From Parachlamydiaceae bacterium (GTDB lineage: Bacteria > Chlamydiota > Chlamydiia > Chlamydiales > Parachlamydiaceae), in NCBI GenBank assembly GCA_037147435.1, contig JBAWVE010000001.1:464-64463 (forward strand): a stretch of DNA of 64,000 nt, given 5' to 3'. The position numbers and the translations under genes were made by a program. Numbering within the stretch: position 1 is the stretch's first letter; each line of letters begins with the position of its first letter. This document shows, piece by piece, positions 36,668 to 44,105 of this stretch. The notes below the pieces were generated by a model. That model ran no database searches. It saw only the letters and a program-made list of their open reading frames with translations, and was not told the DNA's origin.

Positions 36668-36741
36668 GGGGCAATAGCTCAGTTGGTTAGAGCAGCGGAC
36701 TCATAACCCGCTGGTCGCTGGTTCAAGTCCAGCTTGCCCCA
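36668..36741 (+). tRNA. tRNA with CAT anticodon (elongator Met, or Ile2 read via lysidine); integration target of the downstream element
   Basis: Cloverleaf reading: acceptor GGGGCAA/TTGCCCC, D stem GCTC/GAGC, anticodon loop CTCATAA, T arm GCTGG-TTCAAGT-CCAGC. No CCA is encoded. The variable loop plus T arm (TGGTCGCTGGTTCAAGTCCAGC) matches my recollection of E. coli ileX, so Ile2 is plausible. Confidence 0.9.
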
Positions 36742-36776
36742 CTTTTTCCACACATACTTCTGAGCAGGTTTTTACA

Positions 36777-37114
36777 CATTACGCAAATGATGCAAAAAAC
36801 TCATTTTACGCAATTTTTACGCAATCGGCCACAAACAACCAGCGCAACTCAAAGCAATCCCTCTTTTTATCGACCGATTTTTCTGAAATCTTTTCCTACT
36901 CCCCCATTTTTTCGTGGGAACAGTGGGAATTTTGGGAACGCGATTCCTTTGCATTTCATTTTCAGCAACTTACAGTTAATTTAACCGTTCCCATACCACT
37001 AAATACGTCATGGGATCGATGGGAACGTCGAAAAGTTCTTTTTATCGGCAAAAGCCGACCAAACCATGCAAAAAACAGTCAAATCTTTCTTGAACTGCGT
37101 AATAAGTGCGTAAA
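36777..37114. repeat. TTACGCA repeat set (candidate integrase arm-type sites) between the tRNA and int
   Basis: Direct copies at about 36779 (cattacgcaaatg), 36807 (tttacgcaattt) and 36818 (tttacgcaatcgg). Inverted copies tgcgtaa at 37095-37101 and 37106-37112. Confidence 0.5.
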
Positions 37115-37243
37115 AAAGTCCTGTCTTATAGCTCACACCTGCTTACAGGTTAATAATTTATCTTATATTTGGCGGATTGTATATCCGCTGTTCTGGTTTT
37201 TTGCCATTTGTGCTAGTGTACTATACTTTATTTTGGAGGTTAT

Positions 37244-38326
37244 ATGGGAACGATCCGCGAGATAACTAAAAGGGATGGGAGCGTTATGCATCATGCTGAA
37301 ATTCGATTGCGTGGCCATCCACCGCAACGTCAATCTTTTCGCACCAAGACTCAAGCGAAAAAATGGATTCAGGATACTGAGGCTGCGATTAGAGATGGTC
37401 GCTATAAAGGGCTCTCGGCAGCTCGCAAGCATACGGTCGGTGAATTGATCGATCGCTTTATCGAACAATGCGTGCCGCAGCATCCGATCTACTACCCCAA
37501 AAAGGTCCAGCTATTGTTGCGGTGGAAACAGGAATTGGGGTCAATGTTTTTACGCGACCTCTCCCCTTCGTCGATCGCCGAAGTGCGGGACAAATTATTG
37601 TCCGAGACGACGACGAAGAAAACAATTCGCTGTCCAGGAACTGTCAATCGATACTTGGCACTTTTTTCAAGGGCTTTATCGGTTGCATCTAAAGAATGGG
37701 AATGGATGGATGACAATCCGATGCAAAAGGTGAGAAAGTTAAAGGAATCAAAGGGACGAGACCGATGCCTCTCGGCCAGCGAGAAGAATGCCCTTTTGAA
37801 GGCGTGTCGGGAATCGAAAAACCCATTCCTCTATCACATTGTCAATCTCGCGTTACTCACAGGAATGCGTTATGGGGAAATCGTGAAATTGCGATGGGAA
37901 GACATTAACTTTGAGCTCCGCTATGCCACCATGCAGCAAACCAAAAATGGCGATAAGCGCGTGATTCCCATTACAGAAGAGATCATCCAGGTTTTAAAGG
38001 AATGCCCAACCTACGGAGAGGCCCCCGAGGAATTCATTTTTAAGAGCCGCCGCCTCATGCCCACAAAGCATGGGATTACAATCCGAAAATCTTTTGCAAC
38101 CGCTTTGAAAGAAGCAGGAATAAAGAATTTTGTCTTTCATATGCTCCGACATACAGCCGCAACAGACCTTGCCAATGAAGGTGCCACAGAAGGAGATCTT
38201 CAGGAAATTTTTGGATGGAAGACCAAGAAGATGGCCAGTGTATACTGCCATCGCAGCCTTGAGCGCAAACGAAGCCTCCTGGAGAAGCTTGGCAAAGGAT
38301 CAAATCATCAAAACCCAAAGGATTAA
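37244..38326 (+). CDS. int: Tyrosine-type site-specific integrase
   Basis: C-terminal catalytic signatures HMLRHTAATDLANEG and GWKTKKMASVYCH, plus LLTGMRYGEI (the Arg I region). Adjacent to the tRNA. Confidence 0.9.
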   Translation: MGTIREITKRDGSVMHHAEIRLRGHPPQRQSFRTKTQAKKWIQDTEAAIRDGRYKGLSAARKHTVGELIDRFIEQCVPQHPIYYPKKVQLLLRWKQELGSMFLRDLSPSSIAEVRDKLLSETTTKKTIRCPGTVNRYLALFSRALSVASKEWEWMDDNPMQKVRKLKESKGRDRCLSASEKNALLKACRESKNPFLYHIVNLALLTGMRYGEIVKLRWEDINFELRYATMQQTKNGDKRVIPITEEIIQVLKECPTYGEAPEEFIFKSRRLMPTKHGITIRKSFATALKEAGIKNFVFHMLRHTAATDLANEGATEGDLQEIFGWKTKKMASVYCHRSLERKRSLLEKLGKGSNHQNPKD

Positions 38327-38328
38327 AC

Positions 38329-42095: not shown

Positions 42096-42128
42096 CAAAA
42101 CAGCCTATAGAAAAATAACGAAGGAATT

Positions 42129-43184
42129 ATGGATTTACTGGATTTAGCAAAAGAAGCAGGACTCTTACCCATTAAGGTAGCTCAAACTAATGGCGGGGAG
42201 TATATTTGTGCCTGTCCCAAGTGCGGCGATGGCGGCAAAGGAAAAAAGTCCGACCGTTTCCATGTATGGCCGAATCAACAAGCTAAAAATTGTATGGGTC
42301 ATTACTGGTGCCGTCAATGCGGAATCAAAGGAGACAGCATTCAATTTTGCCGCGACCTCCTTGGACTAAATTATGCCGATGCGTGCTCCAGATTGAAGGT
42401 ACAGATGACCATTTCTCCAAAAGAATGGGTGACAGACCTCGCTAGACCACAAAAGACATTCAAAAAAGCAGTGATCCCAAACAGCATTTGGCAGTCCAAG
42501 GCATCGGTATTTATAGAGTGGTGTCATGAATTAATCTGGAAATATCCGGCCGTCATTGCATCCCTTAAGCAACGAGGTTTTGATGAAGAGTCTATTCGAT
42601 ATTGGAAACTCGGCTATTGCCCTGAAACCTTTTGGCGCGATCGCTCCTCATGGGGCTTGTCCGAAAAGCCCAATGCAAGCGGCCTCATCGCAAAATTATG
42701 GTTGCCGCAAGGAATCGTCATTCCCACCTTTTCAGATGGCAATGTGACAAAAATTAAAATTCGCAGACCGGATCCACACACACCACAAGAGAAGAAATTC
42801 CAAAAGTATGTCGTAGTCTCCGGCAGCATGGAAGTTCCATCAATTTATGGAGATCTCTCGAAACCCGTTCTCATTATGGAATCAGAGCTAGATGCCATGT
42901 TGACGTTTAAGGCGATAGAAGGAATTTGTTGCGTGATCGCACTGGGCGGAGCGCAAAAGAAGCCTGATTTAGAACTGCATCAGCACCTTAAACAATCCCC
43001 TCGTATTCTTCTTGCCCTCGACTTTGATGAAGGAGGCATGAAAGGCAACCTATTCTGGCGATCGATCTATCCCCAGCTACTTTTTTGGCCAGTACCAGAA
43101 GGCAAGGGACCTGGCGATGCTATTAAACTTGGACTTGATCTTCGACGTTGGGTTGAAGCAGGTCTCAAGGCAATAAAACTGTAG
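42129..43184 (+). CDS. DNA primase-like protein (CHC2-type zinc finger plus Toprim)
   Basis: Zinc finger CPKCGDGGKGKKSDRFHVW...WCRQCGIKGDSIQF. Toprim-like acidic motifs IMESELDAM and LALDFDEGG. Confidence 0.7.
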   Translation: MDLLDLAKEAGLLPIKVAQTNGGEYICACPKCGDGGKGKKSDRFHVWPNQQAKNCMGHYWCRQCGIKGDSIQFCRDLLGLNYADACSRLKVQMTISPKEWVTDLARPQKTFKKAVIPNSIWQSKASVFIEWCHELIWKYPAVIASLKQRGFDEESIRYWKLGYCPETFWRDRSSWGLSEKPNASGLIAKLWLPQGIVIPTFSDGNVTKIKIRRPDPHTPQEKKFQKYVVVSGSMEVPSIYGDLSKPVLIMESELDAMLTFKAIEGICCVIALGGAQKKPDLELHQHLKQSPRILLALDFDEGGMKGNLFWRSIYPQLLFWPVPEGKGPGDAIKLGLDLRRWVEAGLKAIKL

Positions 43185-43207
43185 TTAACAAAAACAAAGG
43201 AAATACC

Positions 43208-43822
43208 ATGAATAATACACCAACTATTCCAGAGAAAGCTGATATGTCTCGTCCTGGATTTAAGGGTTATCAACTTGAACAGAACTCTTCCTCAAAGAAA
43301 TTTGGGAAGTGTCCAGTCCAGTATATTCTTGAAGGAGACCAGGAAAAGCCAAGGGCTTCTATTATTTTGAATCCCAACGAGCAATGGTGCCAGTCACCTG
43401 CGGAAGCGTTACAATGTGCTCTAACACGAATAACTGGCACTAATGACCAAGATCTAGCGAAAGACATCATCGATAGAGCTATTTCTGCAATGCCCATGGC
43501 CAATGGAAAGGAGCATAATACAAATGTCGTCTACCAGTCTCTATCTGATTGTGGGCCTAAAGACTCCCTGGAAGCCAAACTTTGCGCGCAATGTACGGCT
43601 CTATATGCTCAAGGAATGCAATATCTATCCCGAGTAGAAAAATCTGATATGATGTGCCAGATCGAATTTAATATGAAATGTGCCATAAAGCTGCTTCGCC
43701 TTCACAATGAGACCACAGAGGCGTTGGCACGCTATCGTCGCAAAGGCGAGCAAAAGGTCGTTGTACAACATGTTAATGTGAATGACGGCGGCAAAGCGAT
43801 TGTTGGGAATATGATATCCTAA
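43208..43822 (+). CDS. Hypothetical protein, conserved mobile-element partner of HGGxSTG proteins (from memory)
   Basis: The C-terminus RYRRKGEQKVVVQHVNVNDGGKAIVGN resembles tails I recall in proteins encoded next to HGGxSTG genes. Confidence 0.5.
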   Translation: MNNTPTIPEKADMSRPGFKGYQLEQNSSSKKFGKCPVQYILEGDQEKPRASIILNPNEQWCQSPAEALQCALTRITGTNDQDLAKDIIDRAISAMPMANGKEHNTNVVYQSLSDCGPKDSLEAKLCAQCTALYAQGMQYLSRVEKSDMMCQIEFNMKCAIKLLRLHNETTEALARYRRKGEQKVVVQHVNVNDGGKAIVGNMIS

Positions 43823-43838
43823 TGGAGGGGGGAGGGTA

Positions 43839-44105
43839 ATGAAAAAAACGAGCGAGGTACCCCATGATTCGAGTATCTGTGGGGCAAAAGCAAGGACAAA
43901 TGAACATCAATCTTGCAGGCGAATTGCGATGAAAAATGGTCGCTGTCATTTGCATGGGGGCAAAAGTACTGGTTCGAAAACTCCAGAGGGAAGGTTAATT
44001 CAGAAAATGGCTTCTTGGAAACACGGAATGCGATCAAAGGAGGCGATAGCCGAAGCAAAAACTATACGGCAAATGATGCATGCCTATCGAGAAGAATTAA
44101 AATAA
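43839..44105 (+). CDS. HGGxSTG-motif small protein
   Basis: CRRIAMKNGRCHLHGGKSTGSKTPEG matches the HGGxSTG domain pattern seen in phage- and island-encoded proteins. Confidence 0.6.
   Translation: MKKTSEVPHDSSICGAKARTNEHQSCRRIAMKNGRCHLHGGKSTGSKTPEGRLIQKMASWKHGMRSKEAIAEAKTIRQMMHAYREELK

Follow-up and report, generated by a model that had tools for sequence, protein, structure and literature searches.

A tRNA-linked integrative element with a self-replication module in Parachlamydiaceae

Layout of the element at tRNA-Met(CAT)

The window, a 64,000-nucleotide stretch of a Parachlamydiaceae genome, carries a tRNA gene followed by a compact block of seven protein-coding genes. The tRNA is listed here as tRNA-Met; ARAGORN cannot distinguish tRNA-Met from tRNA-Ile2 among tRNAs with a CAT anticodon. 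The features of the locus are as follows.

36668–36742, + strand: tRNA-Met(CAT) gene (ARAGORN; Rfam tRNA, 71.7 bits)
~36692/36698–36742, + strand: attL core, the 3′ part of the tRNA (tRNA positions 25/31–75), the part kept in several other copies
36743–37243, + strand: left (P′) att arm and integrase upstream region, with repeats and iterons
37244–38326, + strand: tyrosine integrase, 360 aa (PF00589, 2.6e-35; Int_N, 3.1e-06; phrog_1, 2e-60)
38329–39585, + strand: p418, 418 aa (ORF; slot directly after the integrase)
39598–39657, + strand: operator-like repeats upstream of p69 (GAAAGGGGTAGTCA twice, plus one inverted copy)
39739–39948, + strand: p69, 69 aa (ORF; homologues in relatives)
39970–40004, no strand: hairpin with a 16-bp stem between p69 and the helicase gene (repeat/hairpin search)
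40084–41922, + strand: DUF927 helicase, 612 aa (PF06048, 1.4e-82; phrog_1139, 1.9e-91)
41938–42093, no strand: probable replication origin (GGGAAC iterons)
42129–43184, + strand: DnaG-like primase, 351 aa (phrog_47, 4.9e-28; TIGR01391 dnaG, 3.2e-12)
43208–43822, + strand: p204, 204 aa (ORF; homologue context)
43839–44105, + strand: HGGxSTG protein, 88 aa (NF041373, 46.1 bits, cut-off 29)
44108–45261, + strand: deletion scars in place of the right arm, cargo and attR (comparison with L034 and L028)
44108–44297, + strand: remnant of the 5′ end of an S66 peptidase gene
44320–44765, + strand: frameshifted 148-aa ORF, broken relative to L028
44773–45261, + strand: remnant of a DUF2608 gene (last 162 of 438 codons)

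All seven genes lie on the + strand, and the HGGxSTG gene is the last of the conserved core. An earlier note, made from the sequence alone, had described this tRNA and its seven co-directional genes, all of which are found where it placed them; the integrase starts 501 nt past the tRNA end (about 500 bp in the note), and the claimed span of 36668–44105 coincides almost perfectly with the block conserved in other assemblies, which runs from 36664/36692 to 44101/44111. Its integrase and helicase calls are upheld by the profile searches listed above, and, in line with its remark that no capsid, terminase, conjugation or lysis genes are visible, capsid, large terminase, relaxase, type IV secretion and lysis genes have no match in the element in Pfam, PHROGs or NCBIfam. 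Purifying selection acts on every one of the seven genes (dN/dS 0–0.24), with values of 0.014–0.034 for the integrase against five copies aligned full-length.

The P′ arm contains three copies of TTACGCAA (at 36779, 36806 and 36817), a cluster of GGGAAC iterons (36915–37026) and an inverted pair (37096–37115). L027, the circular L054 and the Protochlamydia locus L056 have its TTACGCA repeats in their P′ arms too. In L030–32, L034, L038, L047, L049, L051 and L052, only the 3′ part of the tRNA stands ahead of the element.

Replication module and backbone proteins

In terms of sequence, the DUF927 protein matches PDB entries 8tch_A, “Pathogenicity island protein” (5.3e-20), and 5dgk_A, “Active helicase” (2.2e-09), as well as the NCBIfam model NF047345, Cch1 (1.4e-14), where its 53.6 bits fall far below the equivalog cut-off of 700. 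These matches point to a replicative initiator-helicase related to SaPI Rep and SCC Cch (dN/dS 0.04–0.08). The earlier call of a CHC2/Toprim primase is borne out by phrog_47 as far as primase goes; its CHC2 zinc finger (Zn_ribbon_DnaG) scores 24.5 bits, just under the Pfam cut-off of 24.9, and its Toprim_2 match is sub-threshold (E 0.13, residues 249–305), accompanied by the Toprim-like motifs ESELD and DFDEGG.

Just 3′ of the helicase gene, 8 of the window's 30 GGGAAC copies fall within 156 nt, ordered as three direct, two inverted, an AT-rich spacer and three inverted. Because these iterons flank an AT-rich spacer just past the helicase gene, as would be expected of an origin, 41938–42093 is probably the replication origin. 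L019, L020 and L034 show exactly this arrangement despite differing spacers, L030 keeps the 3+2+3 position spacing, and L027, at 69% identity, also has GGGAAC iterons. Where relatives carry a DUF3987 replicase, the equivalent place holds other iterons, TTGTCCC in L045 and TTAGCA in L055. We infer that the helicase binds the iterons; they could bind a regulator instead. With helicase and primase genes and an iteron origin adjoining the former, the self-replication module proposed in the earlier note is well founded.

The remaining proteins are more difficult to place. p418 has no match in Pfam, PHROGs, NCBIfam, PADLOC or IMG/VR, only 22 homologues, and an AF2 model (pLDDT 83) without a fold match in PDB or BFVD. 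With a dN/dS of 0.14–0.24, it is the element's fastest-evolving gene, a lineage-specific protein in a variable slot. Distant homologues occupy the equivalent slot in L056 (26%, 1e-27) and L055 (23%, 1e-5), the 416-aa slot protein of L043 has no significant similarity to p418, and those of L002 and L045 are 335 and 217 aa long.

p69, by comparison of copies, is the most conserved protein of the backbone, with 100% amino-acid identity in six copies despite dS of up to 0.32, and 96% in L027. Its family comprises 428 representative clusters, and a homologue sits at the equivalent position in the relatives at tRNA-Asn and tRNA-Tyr, in the circular relative and in those from Legionella. Its description as an excisionase-like HTH protein is not confirmed: p69 has no Pfam match at E ≤ 10, and HTH_17 is reached by 3 of 47 family members, a weak link (best E 0.0046). 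We regard p69 as a small putative DNA-binding protein and a candidate excisionase or regulator, and the GAAAGGGGTAGTCA repeats before its gene may serve as operators.

None of the 224 homologues of p204 has a specific functional name or Pfam domain. p204 is a conserved backbone protein that is almost always paired with the HGGxSTG gene, which it adjoins in L043, L045, L055 and L056; its dN/dS is 0.04–0.13. Its AF2 model (pLDDT 80), a β-hairpin and a five-helix bundle, has no significant PDB match; in BFVD and PDB searches with the p418 and p204 folds, small terminases surface only at E > 1. The HGGxSTG protein is 42–68% identical in relatives on other tRNAs and weakly matches phrog_9231, “terminase small subunit” (E 1.9e-4). 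p418 and p204 had been put forward as regulatory or interference candidates; the profile and structure searches gave no known fold, and they identified no interference gene.

The right end and a circular relative

Relative to L034, the window copy is missing 205 nt past the HGGxSTG stop, including a 55-nt stretch that is common to L030–37 and partly recognisable in L027; relative to L028, its DUF2608 gene is shorter by 796 nt. No tRNA-like repeat or P-arm box was found in the 20 kb read downstream of the window copy. The window copy retains attL, the P′ arm, all seven genes and the origin; deletions have removed its P arm, attR and cargo. Given this loss, it is most likely stranded in the chromosome, without precise excision. 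The missing right arm and attR had escaped the earlier note.

Comparison with other assemblies, along the lines that the note had suggested for defining attL and attR, places the attL core in the shared 3′ part of the tRNA. To the right of the tRNA-Met copies examined, reading 5–9 kb past the element in the loci and 20 kb in the window revealed neither an attR nor a P arm. That this subfamily excises is therefore deduced from its relatives and from the pattern of transfer. At tRNA-Asn and tRNA-Tyr, relatives have att repeats of 49–53 nt: L045 has a 49-nt tRNA-Asn repeat, L043 has two att repeats, which mark a tandem array, and L056, from the cultured Protochlamydia sp. HS-T3, has a perfect 53-nt tRNA-Tyr repeat enclosing ~9.7 kb.

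Three loci from three assemblies (L053, L054 and L055) are circular permutations of one another at 100% identity, with terminal overlaps of 127/141 nt; the unit in L054/L055 is 10,319 bp long. Its attP consists of a P arm, a 62-nt 3′ part of tRNA-Tyr and a P′ arm, and the P-arm box GTGCCTATGTATTC is also the right-end mark in L001 and L034. This circle lends direct support to the earlier idea of an episomally replicating island, in a relative with a DUF3987 replicase and tRNA-Tyr, as against DUF927 and tRNA-Met in the window subfamily. Such a contig could in principle represent a tandem chromosomal repeat. Further afield, the 14.6-kb circular plasmid III of Legionella fallonii encodes an integrase together with an HTH protein and a DUF927 protein that shares 39.5% identity with that of the window. 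In Legionella adelaidensis, a related integrase (40%) occurs along with a p69 homologue and an HGGxSTG gene close to a tRNA-Met.

Horizontal spread and nature of the family

Across Parachlamydiaceae assemblies, the block 36692–44105 recurs at 89–96% nucleotide identity (L019–26, L028–38 and L047–52; 69% in L027) and stands in at least 10 different junction contexts, every copy directly 3′ of a full or partial (3′-half) tRNA-Met. Between the window and L048, identity is 65.9% in the host S10 gene and 92.1% over 570 nt of non-coding element DNA. Because the non-coding left end is so much more similar than the adjacent orthologous host gene, the element must have moved horizontally. L002, whose sequence ahead of the tRNA is 88.5% identical to that of L048, has another occupant: from the 3′ end of the tRNA onwards, and precisely from there, its DNA is unrelated. 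In metagenomes, 90%-identity clusters of the element proteins have 65–138 members, ~100 times as many as those of left-flank housekeeping proteins (1–2). These comparisons indicate spread between distantly related hosts by horizontal transfer, so that the tRNA-linked integrative element of the earlier note belongs to a mobile family. Its remark that such an element is unusual for Chlamydiae holds insofar as no published description of the family was found in the literature searched; against it stand the cluster sizes and the complete relative in Protochlamydia sp. HS-T3.

The backbone of the family is ordered att core, integrase, variable slot protein, p69, replicase, origin, primase, p204, HGGxSTG, cargo and att core. 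In the mechanism that we propose, the integrase would recombine an attP carrying a copy of the tRNA 3′ half, that of tRNA-Met(CAT) in the window case, with the host tRNA gene, regenerating an intact tRNA on the integrase-proximal side (attL) and leaving a partial tRNA at the far end (attR). The excised circle would replicate from the iteron origin just 3′ of the DUF927 helicase gene, with the SaPI-Rep/Cch-like helicase and with primers from the element's own DnaG-like primase. p69 may function in excision or regulation, although it differs between subfamilies. The distal end would hold variable cargo, frequently anti-phage or toxin-antitoxin genes.

Like PICIs and SaPIs, the element has a site-specific tyrosine integrase at one end, a small (here putative) DNA-binding protein before the replication genes, a self-loading Rep helicase with a primase, an iteron origin adjoining the replicase gene and a size of 7–15 kb without structural genes. 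Unlike them, it occupies one strand only, lacks a divergent repressor/activator module and recognisable terS, ppi, cpm and capsid genes, has its helicase gene before its primase gene, targets a tRNA 3′ half and has no known helper phage; p418, p204 and HGGxSTG are not PICI genes. P4 integrates at a tRNA gene and has ori and crr. P4-like satellites share integrase, primase and helicase functions and tRNA-gene integration with the element, and its two separate clusters of one iteron (36915–37026 and 41938–42093) recall ori and crr, whereas Psu, Sid, Delta, Epsilon, a fused alpha-type primase-helicase and an AlpA profile match are all absent. Staphylococcal SCC shares the Cch-homologous helicase (at the distant Cch1 score given above) but uses Ccr serine recombinases and rlmH in place of a tyrosine integrase and a tRNA gene. 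Prochlorococcus tycheposons (bioRxiv 10.1101/2020.12.28.424599) likewise integrate by tyrosine recombinase at tRNA genes with partial tRNAs as att sites, carry primase and helicase genes and distal cargo, and pile up in tandem at one tRNA, newer copies pushing older ones inward, with degenerate remnants. The hosts here belong to another phylum and are obligate intracellular amoeba symbionts, and the cargo is toxin-antitoxin/defence rather than nutrient acquisition. L. fallonii plasmid III (NZ_LN614829.1) is similarly a small integrase-encoding circle of an amoeba-associated host with HTH and DUF927 proteins, but lacks p204, HGGxSTG and primase, and its integrase is just 29% identical in a partial alignment. 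The 9.1-kb plasmid of Estrella lausannensis, another such circle from an amoeba-associated host, has, by its published description, an integrase, excisionase, primase and toxin-antitoxin pair (PMC4333871); the window primase has no PLSDB match at 1e-8.

The gene set and size, together with 8tch_A as the solved structure closest to the helicase, would also suit a phage satellite (PICI-like or P4-like) that remains in the chromosome pending infection by a helper phage of environmental chlamydiae, then excises, replicates by means of its own helicase and primase and is packaged into helper capsids, with p204 and HGGxSTG redirecting packaging and p418 sensing the helper. SaPI origins have the same arrangement of iterons beside the replicase gene. 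The weak phrog_9231 match, the fast-evolving slot proteins (those of L043 and L002 without detectable similarity to p418) and the anti-phage-rich DNA neighbouring the relatives, which implies phage pressure, can be read in the same way. We nevertheless consider this improbable: Pfam and PHROGs reveal no capsid, capsid-remodelling, large-terminase or cos/pac-related gene and no Psu, Sid or Delta, the genes are co-directional without a divergent repressor module, p418 is absent from IMG/VR, and the p204 and p418 folds resemble nothing in BFVD or PDB. No helper phage or packaging gene was identified for the element, and the literature searched gave no link between chlamydiae and phage satellites. 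The only phages known from chlamydiae are small microviruses, whose capsids are too small for 7–10 kb.

Somewhat less doubtful, though still tentative, is an integrative plasmid or mobilisable island that borrows conjugation machinery in trans, such as that of F-like tra islands in Parachlamydiaceae, or spreads by DNA uptake among symbionts sharing one amoeba. The 10.3-kb circular relative, the L. fallonii plasmid and a known conjugative island in Protochlamydia (PMC548262) agree with it, as do the L. adelaidensis homologues, which indicate exchange among amoeba-associated bacteria. Against it, Pfam, PHROGs and NCBIfam gave no sign of a relaxase, an oriT-like feature or a coupling protein, and MOB typing of DUF927 plasmids mostly returns “non-mobilizable”. 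A vertically inherited, domesticated and immobile relic, its differing flanks produced by host rearrangements at the tRNA gene, could account for the lack of attR at every tRNA-Met copy examined, the scars right of the window copy and the decay of L029 (internal deletions in its integrase, helicase and primase genes). This is highly improbable and contradicted for the family as a whole by the identity of non-coding element DNA against that of the host gene, the other occupant of L002, the cluster sizes and the constraint on the integrase; for the window copy alone it may hold.

The element encodes no transfer machinery by Pfam, PHROGs and NCBIfam, and its hosts are obligate intracellular. We class it with PICI-like or tycheposon-like elements, and the region is, with good confidence, one copy of a family of small, integrative and self-replicating elements of Parachlamydiaceae.

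Gene content of the tRNA-linked element

The window belongs to a Parachlamydiaceae metagenome-assembled genome (MAG; locus tags WCF65_) and lies on a contig of 64,815 nt; its tRNA-Met(CAT) gene is followed on the 3′ side by seven open reading frames (ORFs), all on the + strand.

Features of the element in the window
36668–36742, tRNA-Met(CAT), the only tRNA of the window (ARAGORN)
37244–38326, +, tyrosine integrase (PF00589, 2.6e-35)
38329–39585, +, p418, a 418-aa protein (no Pfam, PHROG, NCBIfam or PADLOC match)
39739–39948, +, p69, a 69-aa protein (no Pfam match at E ≤ 10)
40084–41922, +, DUF927 helicase (PF06048, 1.4e-82)
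42129–43184, +, DnaG-like primase (phrog_47, 4.9e-28)
43208–43822, +, p204, a 204-aa protein (no above-threshold profile match)
43839–44105, +, HGGxSTG protein (NF041373, 46.1 bits, curated cut-off 29)

The gene description and coordinates of the earlier note proved correct in ARAGORN, ORF and profile searches, the excisionase (Xis) label apart. What had been called an "excisionase-like HTH" protein, p69, is indeed small; the Xis label is unproven, given the missing Pfam match of the window sequence. HTH_17 (PF12728) is reached, weakly, by 3 of 47 members of the p69 family (best E 0.0046), a large set of small proteins comprising 428 representative clusters, and a PDB search with the window sequence and family profiles found no related solved structure.

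In terms of replication proteins, the DUF927 helicase has PDB sequence matches to 8tch_A ("Pathogenicity island protein", 5.3e-20) and 5dgk_A ("Active helicase", 2.2e-09). The CHC2 finger of the primase scores 24.5 bits against a cut-off of 24.9, and its Toprim domain is seen only as motifs and a match at E 0.13. The last gene product, at 46.1 bits, falls within the HGGxSTG domain proteins. No structural, lysis or conjugation genes were found among the seven genes with Pfam, PHROGs and NCBIfam; the tRNA is the sole Rfam match in the element, and a promoter and terminator scan returned the counts expected from shuffled sequence.

The earlier note had singled out the two uncharacterized proteins as candidates for regulatory or interference functions. 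For p418, searches of Pfam, PHROGs, NCBIfam and PADLOC and a Foldseek comparison of its confident model (pLDDT 83) with PDB and BFVD gave no match, and a role as sensor, regulator or interference factor is possible and unsupported by them. It is the fastest-evolving gene of the element; only 22 homologues occur among 5.8 billion protein clusters, it is absent from IMG/VR (where the DUF927 protein matches only 41–42%-identical contigs), and the proteins that occupy its slot, directly after the integrase, in the comparison loci L043 and L002 have no detectable similarity to it. The same searches with p204 likewise gave nothing above threshold (BRO1, 20 bits, below the cut-off of 35); its model (pLDDT 80) comprises a β-hairpin and a five-helix bundle with no significant structural match. 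It has >220 homologues, and its gene travels with the HGGxSTG gene.

The T-arm of the window tRNA (GGTCGCTGGTTCAAGTCCAGC) appears to match that of E. coli tRNA-Ile2, and because of this the CAT-anticodon gene may encode a lysidine-modified tRNA-Ile2 rather than tRNA-Met.

Recurrence at tRNA-Met and transfer between hosts

Contigs encoding p418 homologues and other cluster members were fetched for comparison. The seven genes recur in the same order, at 91–96% nucleotide identity to window positions 36664/36692–44101/44111, in L019–L026 and L030–L038, and six further junction contigs at 89–93% identity came from JGI metagenomes (L048, 92% over the element part). L028 covers just the right end of the block and has its right flank in common with the window. 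In a Chlamydiota MAG (L027), the block is present at 69% identity, with a CT_584-like protein encoded in its flank. Every copy begins immediately at the tRNA-Met 3′ end, and the DNA upstream of the tRNA varies, with the S10 peptidase gene of the window replaced by hemN in L020, by grpB in L027 and by others in L019 and L050. A partial tRNA, covering positions 25, 28 or 31 to 75 only, precedes the element in L030–L032, L034, L038, L047, L049, L051 and L052.

ARAGORN calls a 68–70-nt "tRNA-Met" in L030 (4543–4612), L031 (4542–4609), L032 (3095–3163) and L051, the 3′ part of which is the att core and the 5′ part divergent tRNA-like sequence (GGGGAGTTAGCTGCTGGGAAGTGGC...); these calls may be hybrid or pseudo-tRNAs from another island's right end. 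L031 also carries phosphoketolase (XFP) and cation-ATPase gene pairs on either side of the element region (1–2935 and 17188–20798). These are 80%-identical paralogues, which ruled out L031 being a concatemer.

The S10–tRNA-Met synteny is the same in L048 and the window, and the identity between the two changes at the tRNA: it is 65.9% over the 1300 nt of the S10 gene beside the tRNA versus 92.1% over 570 nt of non-coding element DNA past it. Conversely, L002 and L048 are 88.5% identical upstream of the tRNA, and from the tRNA 3′ end on nothing in L002 can be aligned to L048, the occupant of L002 having an integrase of its own (41% identical) and an unrelated gene of 335 aa. The element proteins fall into 90%-identity clusters of 65–138 members; of seven left-flank housekeeping proteins tested, six are singletons and one clusters with a single short fragment. 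All seven element genes are under purifying selection, with dN/dS of 0.014–0.034 for the integrase and 0.14–0.24 for p418, and the p69 amino acid sequence is 100% identical while dS reaches 0.32. Judged from these sequence comparisons, the element has moved horizontally between hosts. A vertically inherited relic was rejected because it does not fit the contrast between S10 and element identity at L048, the cluster sizes or the dN/dS values. Decay of individual copies occurs nonetheless, as in L029, where the integrase, helicase and primase genes have all suffered internal deletions.

In relatives, many defence genes lie beside the element (L019 8344–13380, L027 15805–21287, L030 2214–4114, L020 15817–17293), among them type I restriction-modification accompanied by SoFic (3e-120), an IetA-like ATPase together with an HSP70-like gene, AbiLi/AbiLii and AbiEii/AbiEi. 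In Parachlamydiaceae, tRNA-Met looks like a hot spot for defence islands, and the gathering there, in relatives, of AbiE, AbiL, SoFic-associated type I restriction-modification and IetA-like genes suggests that intracellular symbionts are under pressure from phages or plasmids. In a Chlamydiae MAG (L001), tRNA-Met is occupied by an integrase-less island (11672–16777 and 17390–18388), which carries a beta-lactamase-fold gene, AbiE, numerous 20–26-nt repeats and a fusion of a Y1 (IS200-like) transposase and a DnaA-C-like HTH that is present twice.

Relatives on other tRNAs, a circular relative and the state of the window copy

The earlier note had proposed a search for related modules, and the contexts of p204 homologues revealed the same backbone on other tRNAs. 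In L043 and L045, contigs of 2.05 and 2.58 Mb, the target is tRNA-Asn, after groES–groEL. Relative to the window, identities are 40–42% for the integrase, ~35% for the p69 homologue, 49–50% for p204 and 62–68% for the HGGxSTG protein; the slot protein is different, the replicase is of the DUF3987 type, and cargo follows the HGGxSTG gene. The att sequence is a 49-nt repeat of the tRNA 3′ half, of which L043 has two, forming a tandem array. The cultured amoeba symbiont Protochlamydia sp. HS-T3 (L056) has the element at tRNA-Tyr, at about 239.6–249.3 kb of contig BBPT01000001.1, with a perfect 53-nt att repeat 9.7 kb away, a HepT/MNT toxin-antitoxin pair, and homologues of all seven genes (integrase 52%, p418 26% at 1e-27, p69 49%, DUF927 45%, and p204, HGGxSTG protein and primase 42% each). 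In Legionella adelaidensis, a related integrase (40%) is encoded near tRNA-Met, together with a p69 homologue and an HGGxSTG protein. In this record (L058; NZ_LR134418.1, 225863–246867) the order is tRNA-Met, a PIN-domain gene, a hypothetical gene and then an element (related integrase, p69 homologue, toprim protein, HGGxSTG gene); the record is labelled "plasmid 9" and looks like chromosome rather than plasmid because it carries rpsU, dnaG and rpoD.

Three further assemblies (L053, L054 and L055) contain the same backbone with a DUF3987 replicase, a primase and a tRNA-Tyr 3′ part in attP. They are 100% identical circular permutations with terminal overlaps of 127 or 141 nt, and such overlap, the usual mark of a circular assembly, suggests that these contigs are circular, with a unit of 10,319 bp in L054 and L055. 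Their attP is tripartite: TTACGCA repeats occur both in the P arm, which also has a GTGCCTATGTATTC box, and in the P′ arm, and between the arms lies a 62-nt core that matches the tRNA-Tyr 3′ part at 96.8% identity. L053 (GCA_035493595.1, DATJHZ010000622.1), a 10.3-kb circle, is binned into a "Cyclobacteriaceae" MAG, an assignment that is probably wrong: the closest genes are those of chlamydial elements, and the att core agrees with the Protochlamydia tRNA-Tyr.

The same P-arm box lies directly before a partial tRNA-Met in L001 and L034, which points to these junctions as right ends of family members. The L034 junction is directly upstream of the studied element; that of L001 is the right end of the integrase-less island, where the box is joined to an 81-nt tRNA repeat. 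Elements are piled up in tandem at tRNA-Met, the newest beside the tRNA, the same tandem logic as in Prochlorococcus tycheposons (bioRxiv 10.1101/2020.12.28.424599).

Comparison with related loci had been suggested in the earlier note as a way to define both ends of the window copy. This identified attL, the tRNA-Met 3′ part at the integrase side; for attR, the far-end partial tRNA, exact k-mers, a 23-mer with ≤3 mismatches, blastn-short and Smith-Waterman alignment with shuffles found nothing above chance in the window. The 20 kb right of the element contain no tRNA-like repeat or P-arm box, and the P-arm box GTGCCTATGTATTCTC has only chance-level, 3-mismatch matches in the window, outside the region. 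Nor did the same search find attR in the other tRNA-Met loci, within the 5–9 kb read downstream, which is the main gap in the argument. Two candidates were discarded: the 12-nt repeat GCAAATGATGCA, found at 36783 and at 44069, is no more than expected by chance (E 0.41), and a 49-nt stretch at 44108–44156, a candidate element end also present in L019 and L020, belongs to an S66 peptidase gene, as its promoter and initial codons.

The S66 peptidase gene is intact in L034. Relative to this locus, the window lacks the 205 nt directly past the HGGxSTG stop codon, including 55 nt common to L030–L037 and partly recognizable in L027, and past the deletion it runs into the first 160 nt of the peptidase gene. 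Relative to L028, a 148-aa ORF is frameshifted (window 44320–44765; intact at L028 256–702) and 796 nt of a DUF2608 gene are lost; the ORF has a weak, sub-threshold likeness to a phage-integrase SAM-like N-terminal domain (PF13102, E 5.4e-4). AbiEii/AbiEi follow the HGGxSTG gene in L020 and L026, with an AbiE remnant in L019. The window copy thus keeps attL, the P′ arm between tRNA and integrase, the seven genes and a putative origin, and has lost its distal end. We infer that it would be unable to excise precisely, and it is probably immobile.

Farther right, a thiM-thiE-thiL-thiD-MFS-tenA operon (46155–51360, −) lies behind a TPP riboswitch (51345–51452, −; 65 bits, cut-off 54.3). Its proteins form 90%-identity clusters of 5–13 members as against the left-flank singletons, on which ground this thiamine salvage block may be common to more genomes than the host core, and it could be part of a larger island. 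Just past it, an NCBI-named IS4-family transposase gene (52004–53338, +; a singleton cluster) could mark the edge of the variable region. Another ~4.5 kb (58606–63103) contain no ORF ≥100 aa on either strand and no Rfam family, and may represent decayed genes or another non-coding feature.

The putative origin is marked by GGGAAC, which occurs 30 times in the window, 16 of them within the element. Eight copies lie in 41938–42093, in the gap that separates the helicase and primase genes: three in direct orientation and two inverted ahead of an AT-rich spacer, and another three inverted beyond it. The arrangement is identical in L019, L020 and L034 despite differing spacers, L030 has the same 3+2+3 position spacing, and L027, 69% identical overall, retains GGGAAC iterons at the same site. 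A second cluster, at 36915–37026 in the tRNA–integrase interval, is likewise retained by L027. In relatives whose replicase is of the DUF3987 type, its gene is followed by other repeats, TTGTCCC (L045) and TTAGCA (L055). In SaPIs, too, the origin is next to rep and has iterons on either side of an AT-rich stretch; P4 contains two clusters of iterons (ori and crr). By position and arrangement, 41938–42093 is a putative replication origin, and the helicase would bind the GGGAAC repeats, although they could instead be bound by a regulator. The tRNA–integrase spacer also contains three copies of TTACGCAA and an inverted pair (37096–37115); because the same repeat occurs in the arms of relatives targeting other tRNAs, it fits a reading as putative arm-type recombinase or p69 sites.

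Comparison with known systems and significance

The element resembles phage-inducible chromosomal islands (PICIs) in having an integrase at one end of a ~7–15 kb island without structural or lysis genes, and its own primase and Rep helicase with an adjacent iteron array as putative origin. A PICI control module (divergent stl/str or alpA) is missing, all seven genes being on the + strand with no repressor or AlpA profile match, and the sole hint of packaging or interference genes (terS, ppi, cpm, capsid) is a match of the HGGxSTG protein to phrog_9231 (1.9e-4). PHROG and Pfam searches likewise returned no psu, sid, delta, epsilon or alpha-type fused primase-helicase of P4; in contrast to P4-like satellites, helicase and primase are separate genes. 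Thus, membership in P4 fails on control and packaging genes, membership in PICIs fails on control genes and probably also on packaging genes, and membership in ICEs or IMEs fails as Pfam, NCBIfam and PHROGs detect no relaxase, type IV secretion system or coupling protein. SCC elements use Ccr serine recombinases at rlmH, whereas here a tyrosine integrase is found at a tRNA, and the Cch1 equivalog scores 53.6 bits against a cut-off of 700. With tycheposons the family has in common replication hallmark genes, distal cargo and tandem accumulation at one tRNA; full and partial tRNA flanks are present in L043, L045 and L056, and the window copy has the tRNA side only. The element probably works like a PICI/SaPI or a tycheposon.

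Small integrase-bearing circles are also represented by plasmid III of Legionella fallonii, an amoeba-associated bacterium, and, by description, by the 9.1-kb plasmid of Estrella lausannensis (PMC4333871). PLSDB contains no match to the element primase, and a literature search turned up no paper on HGGxSTG or, for chlamydiae, on DUF927 elements or satellites. Overall, the satellite reading is unlikely; in it, the family would be a phage satellite system of environmental chlamydiae, with p204 and the HGGxSTG protein redirecting packaging and the fast-evolving slot protein (p418, or the unrelated proteins at its position) as helper sensor. If true, obligate intracellular chlamydiae would be attacked by still-unknown phages able to package 7–10 kb.

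Few mobile elements are known from environmental chlamydiae, and hardly any genetic tools are available for them. The compact element offers a defined integrase, att site, arm repeats, replicase and putative origin, and the complete copy with perfect att repeats in cultured Protochlamydia sp. HS-T3 is a start for integrative or shuttle vectors. Transfer between hosts with 66% identity in the adjacent gene, together with the Legionella relatives at tRNA-Met, bears on intra-amoeba gene flow.
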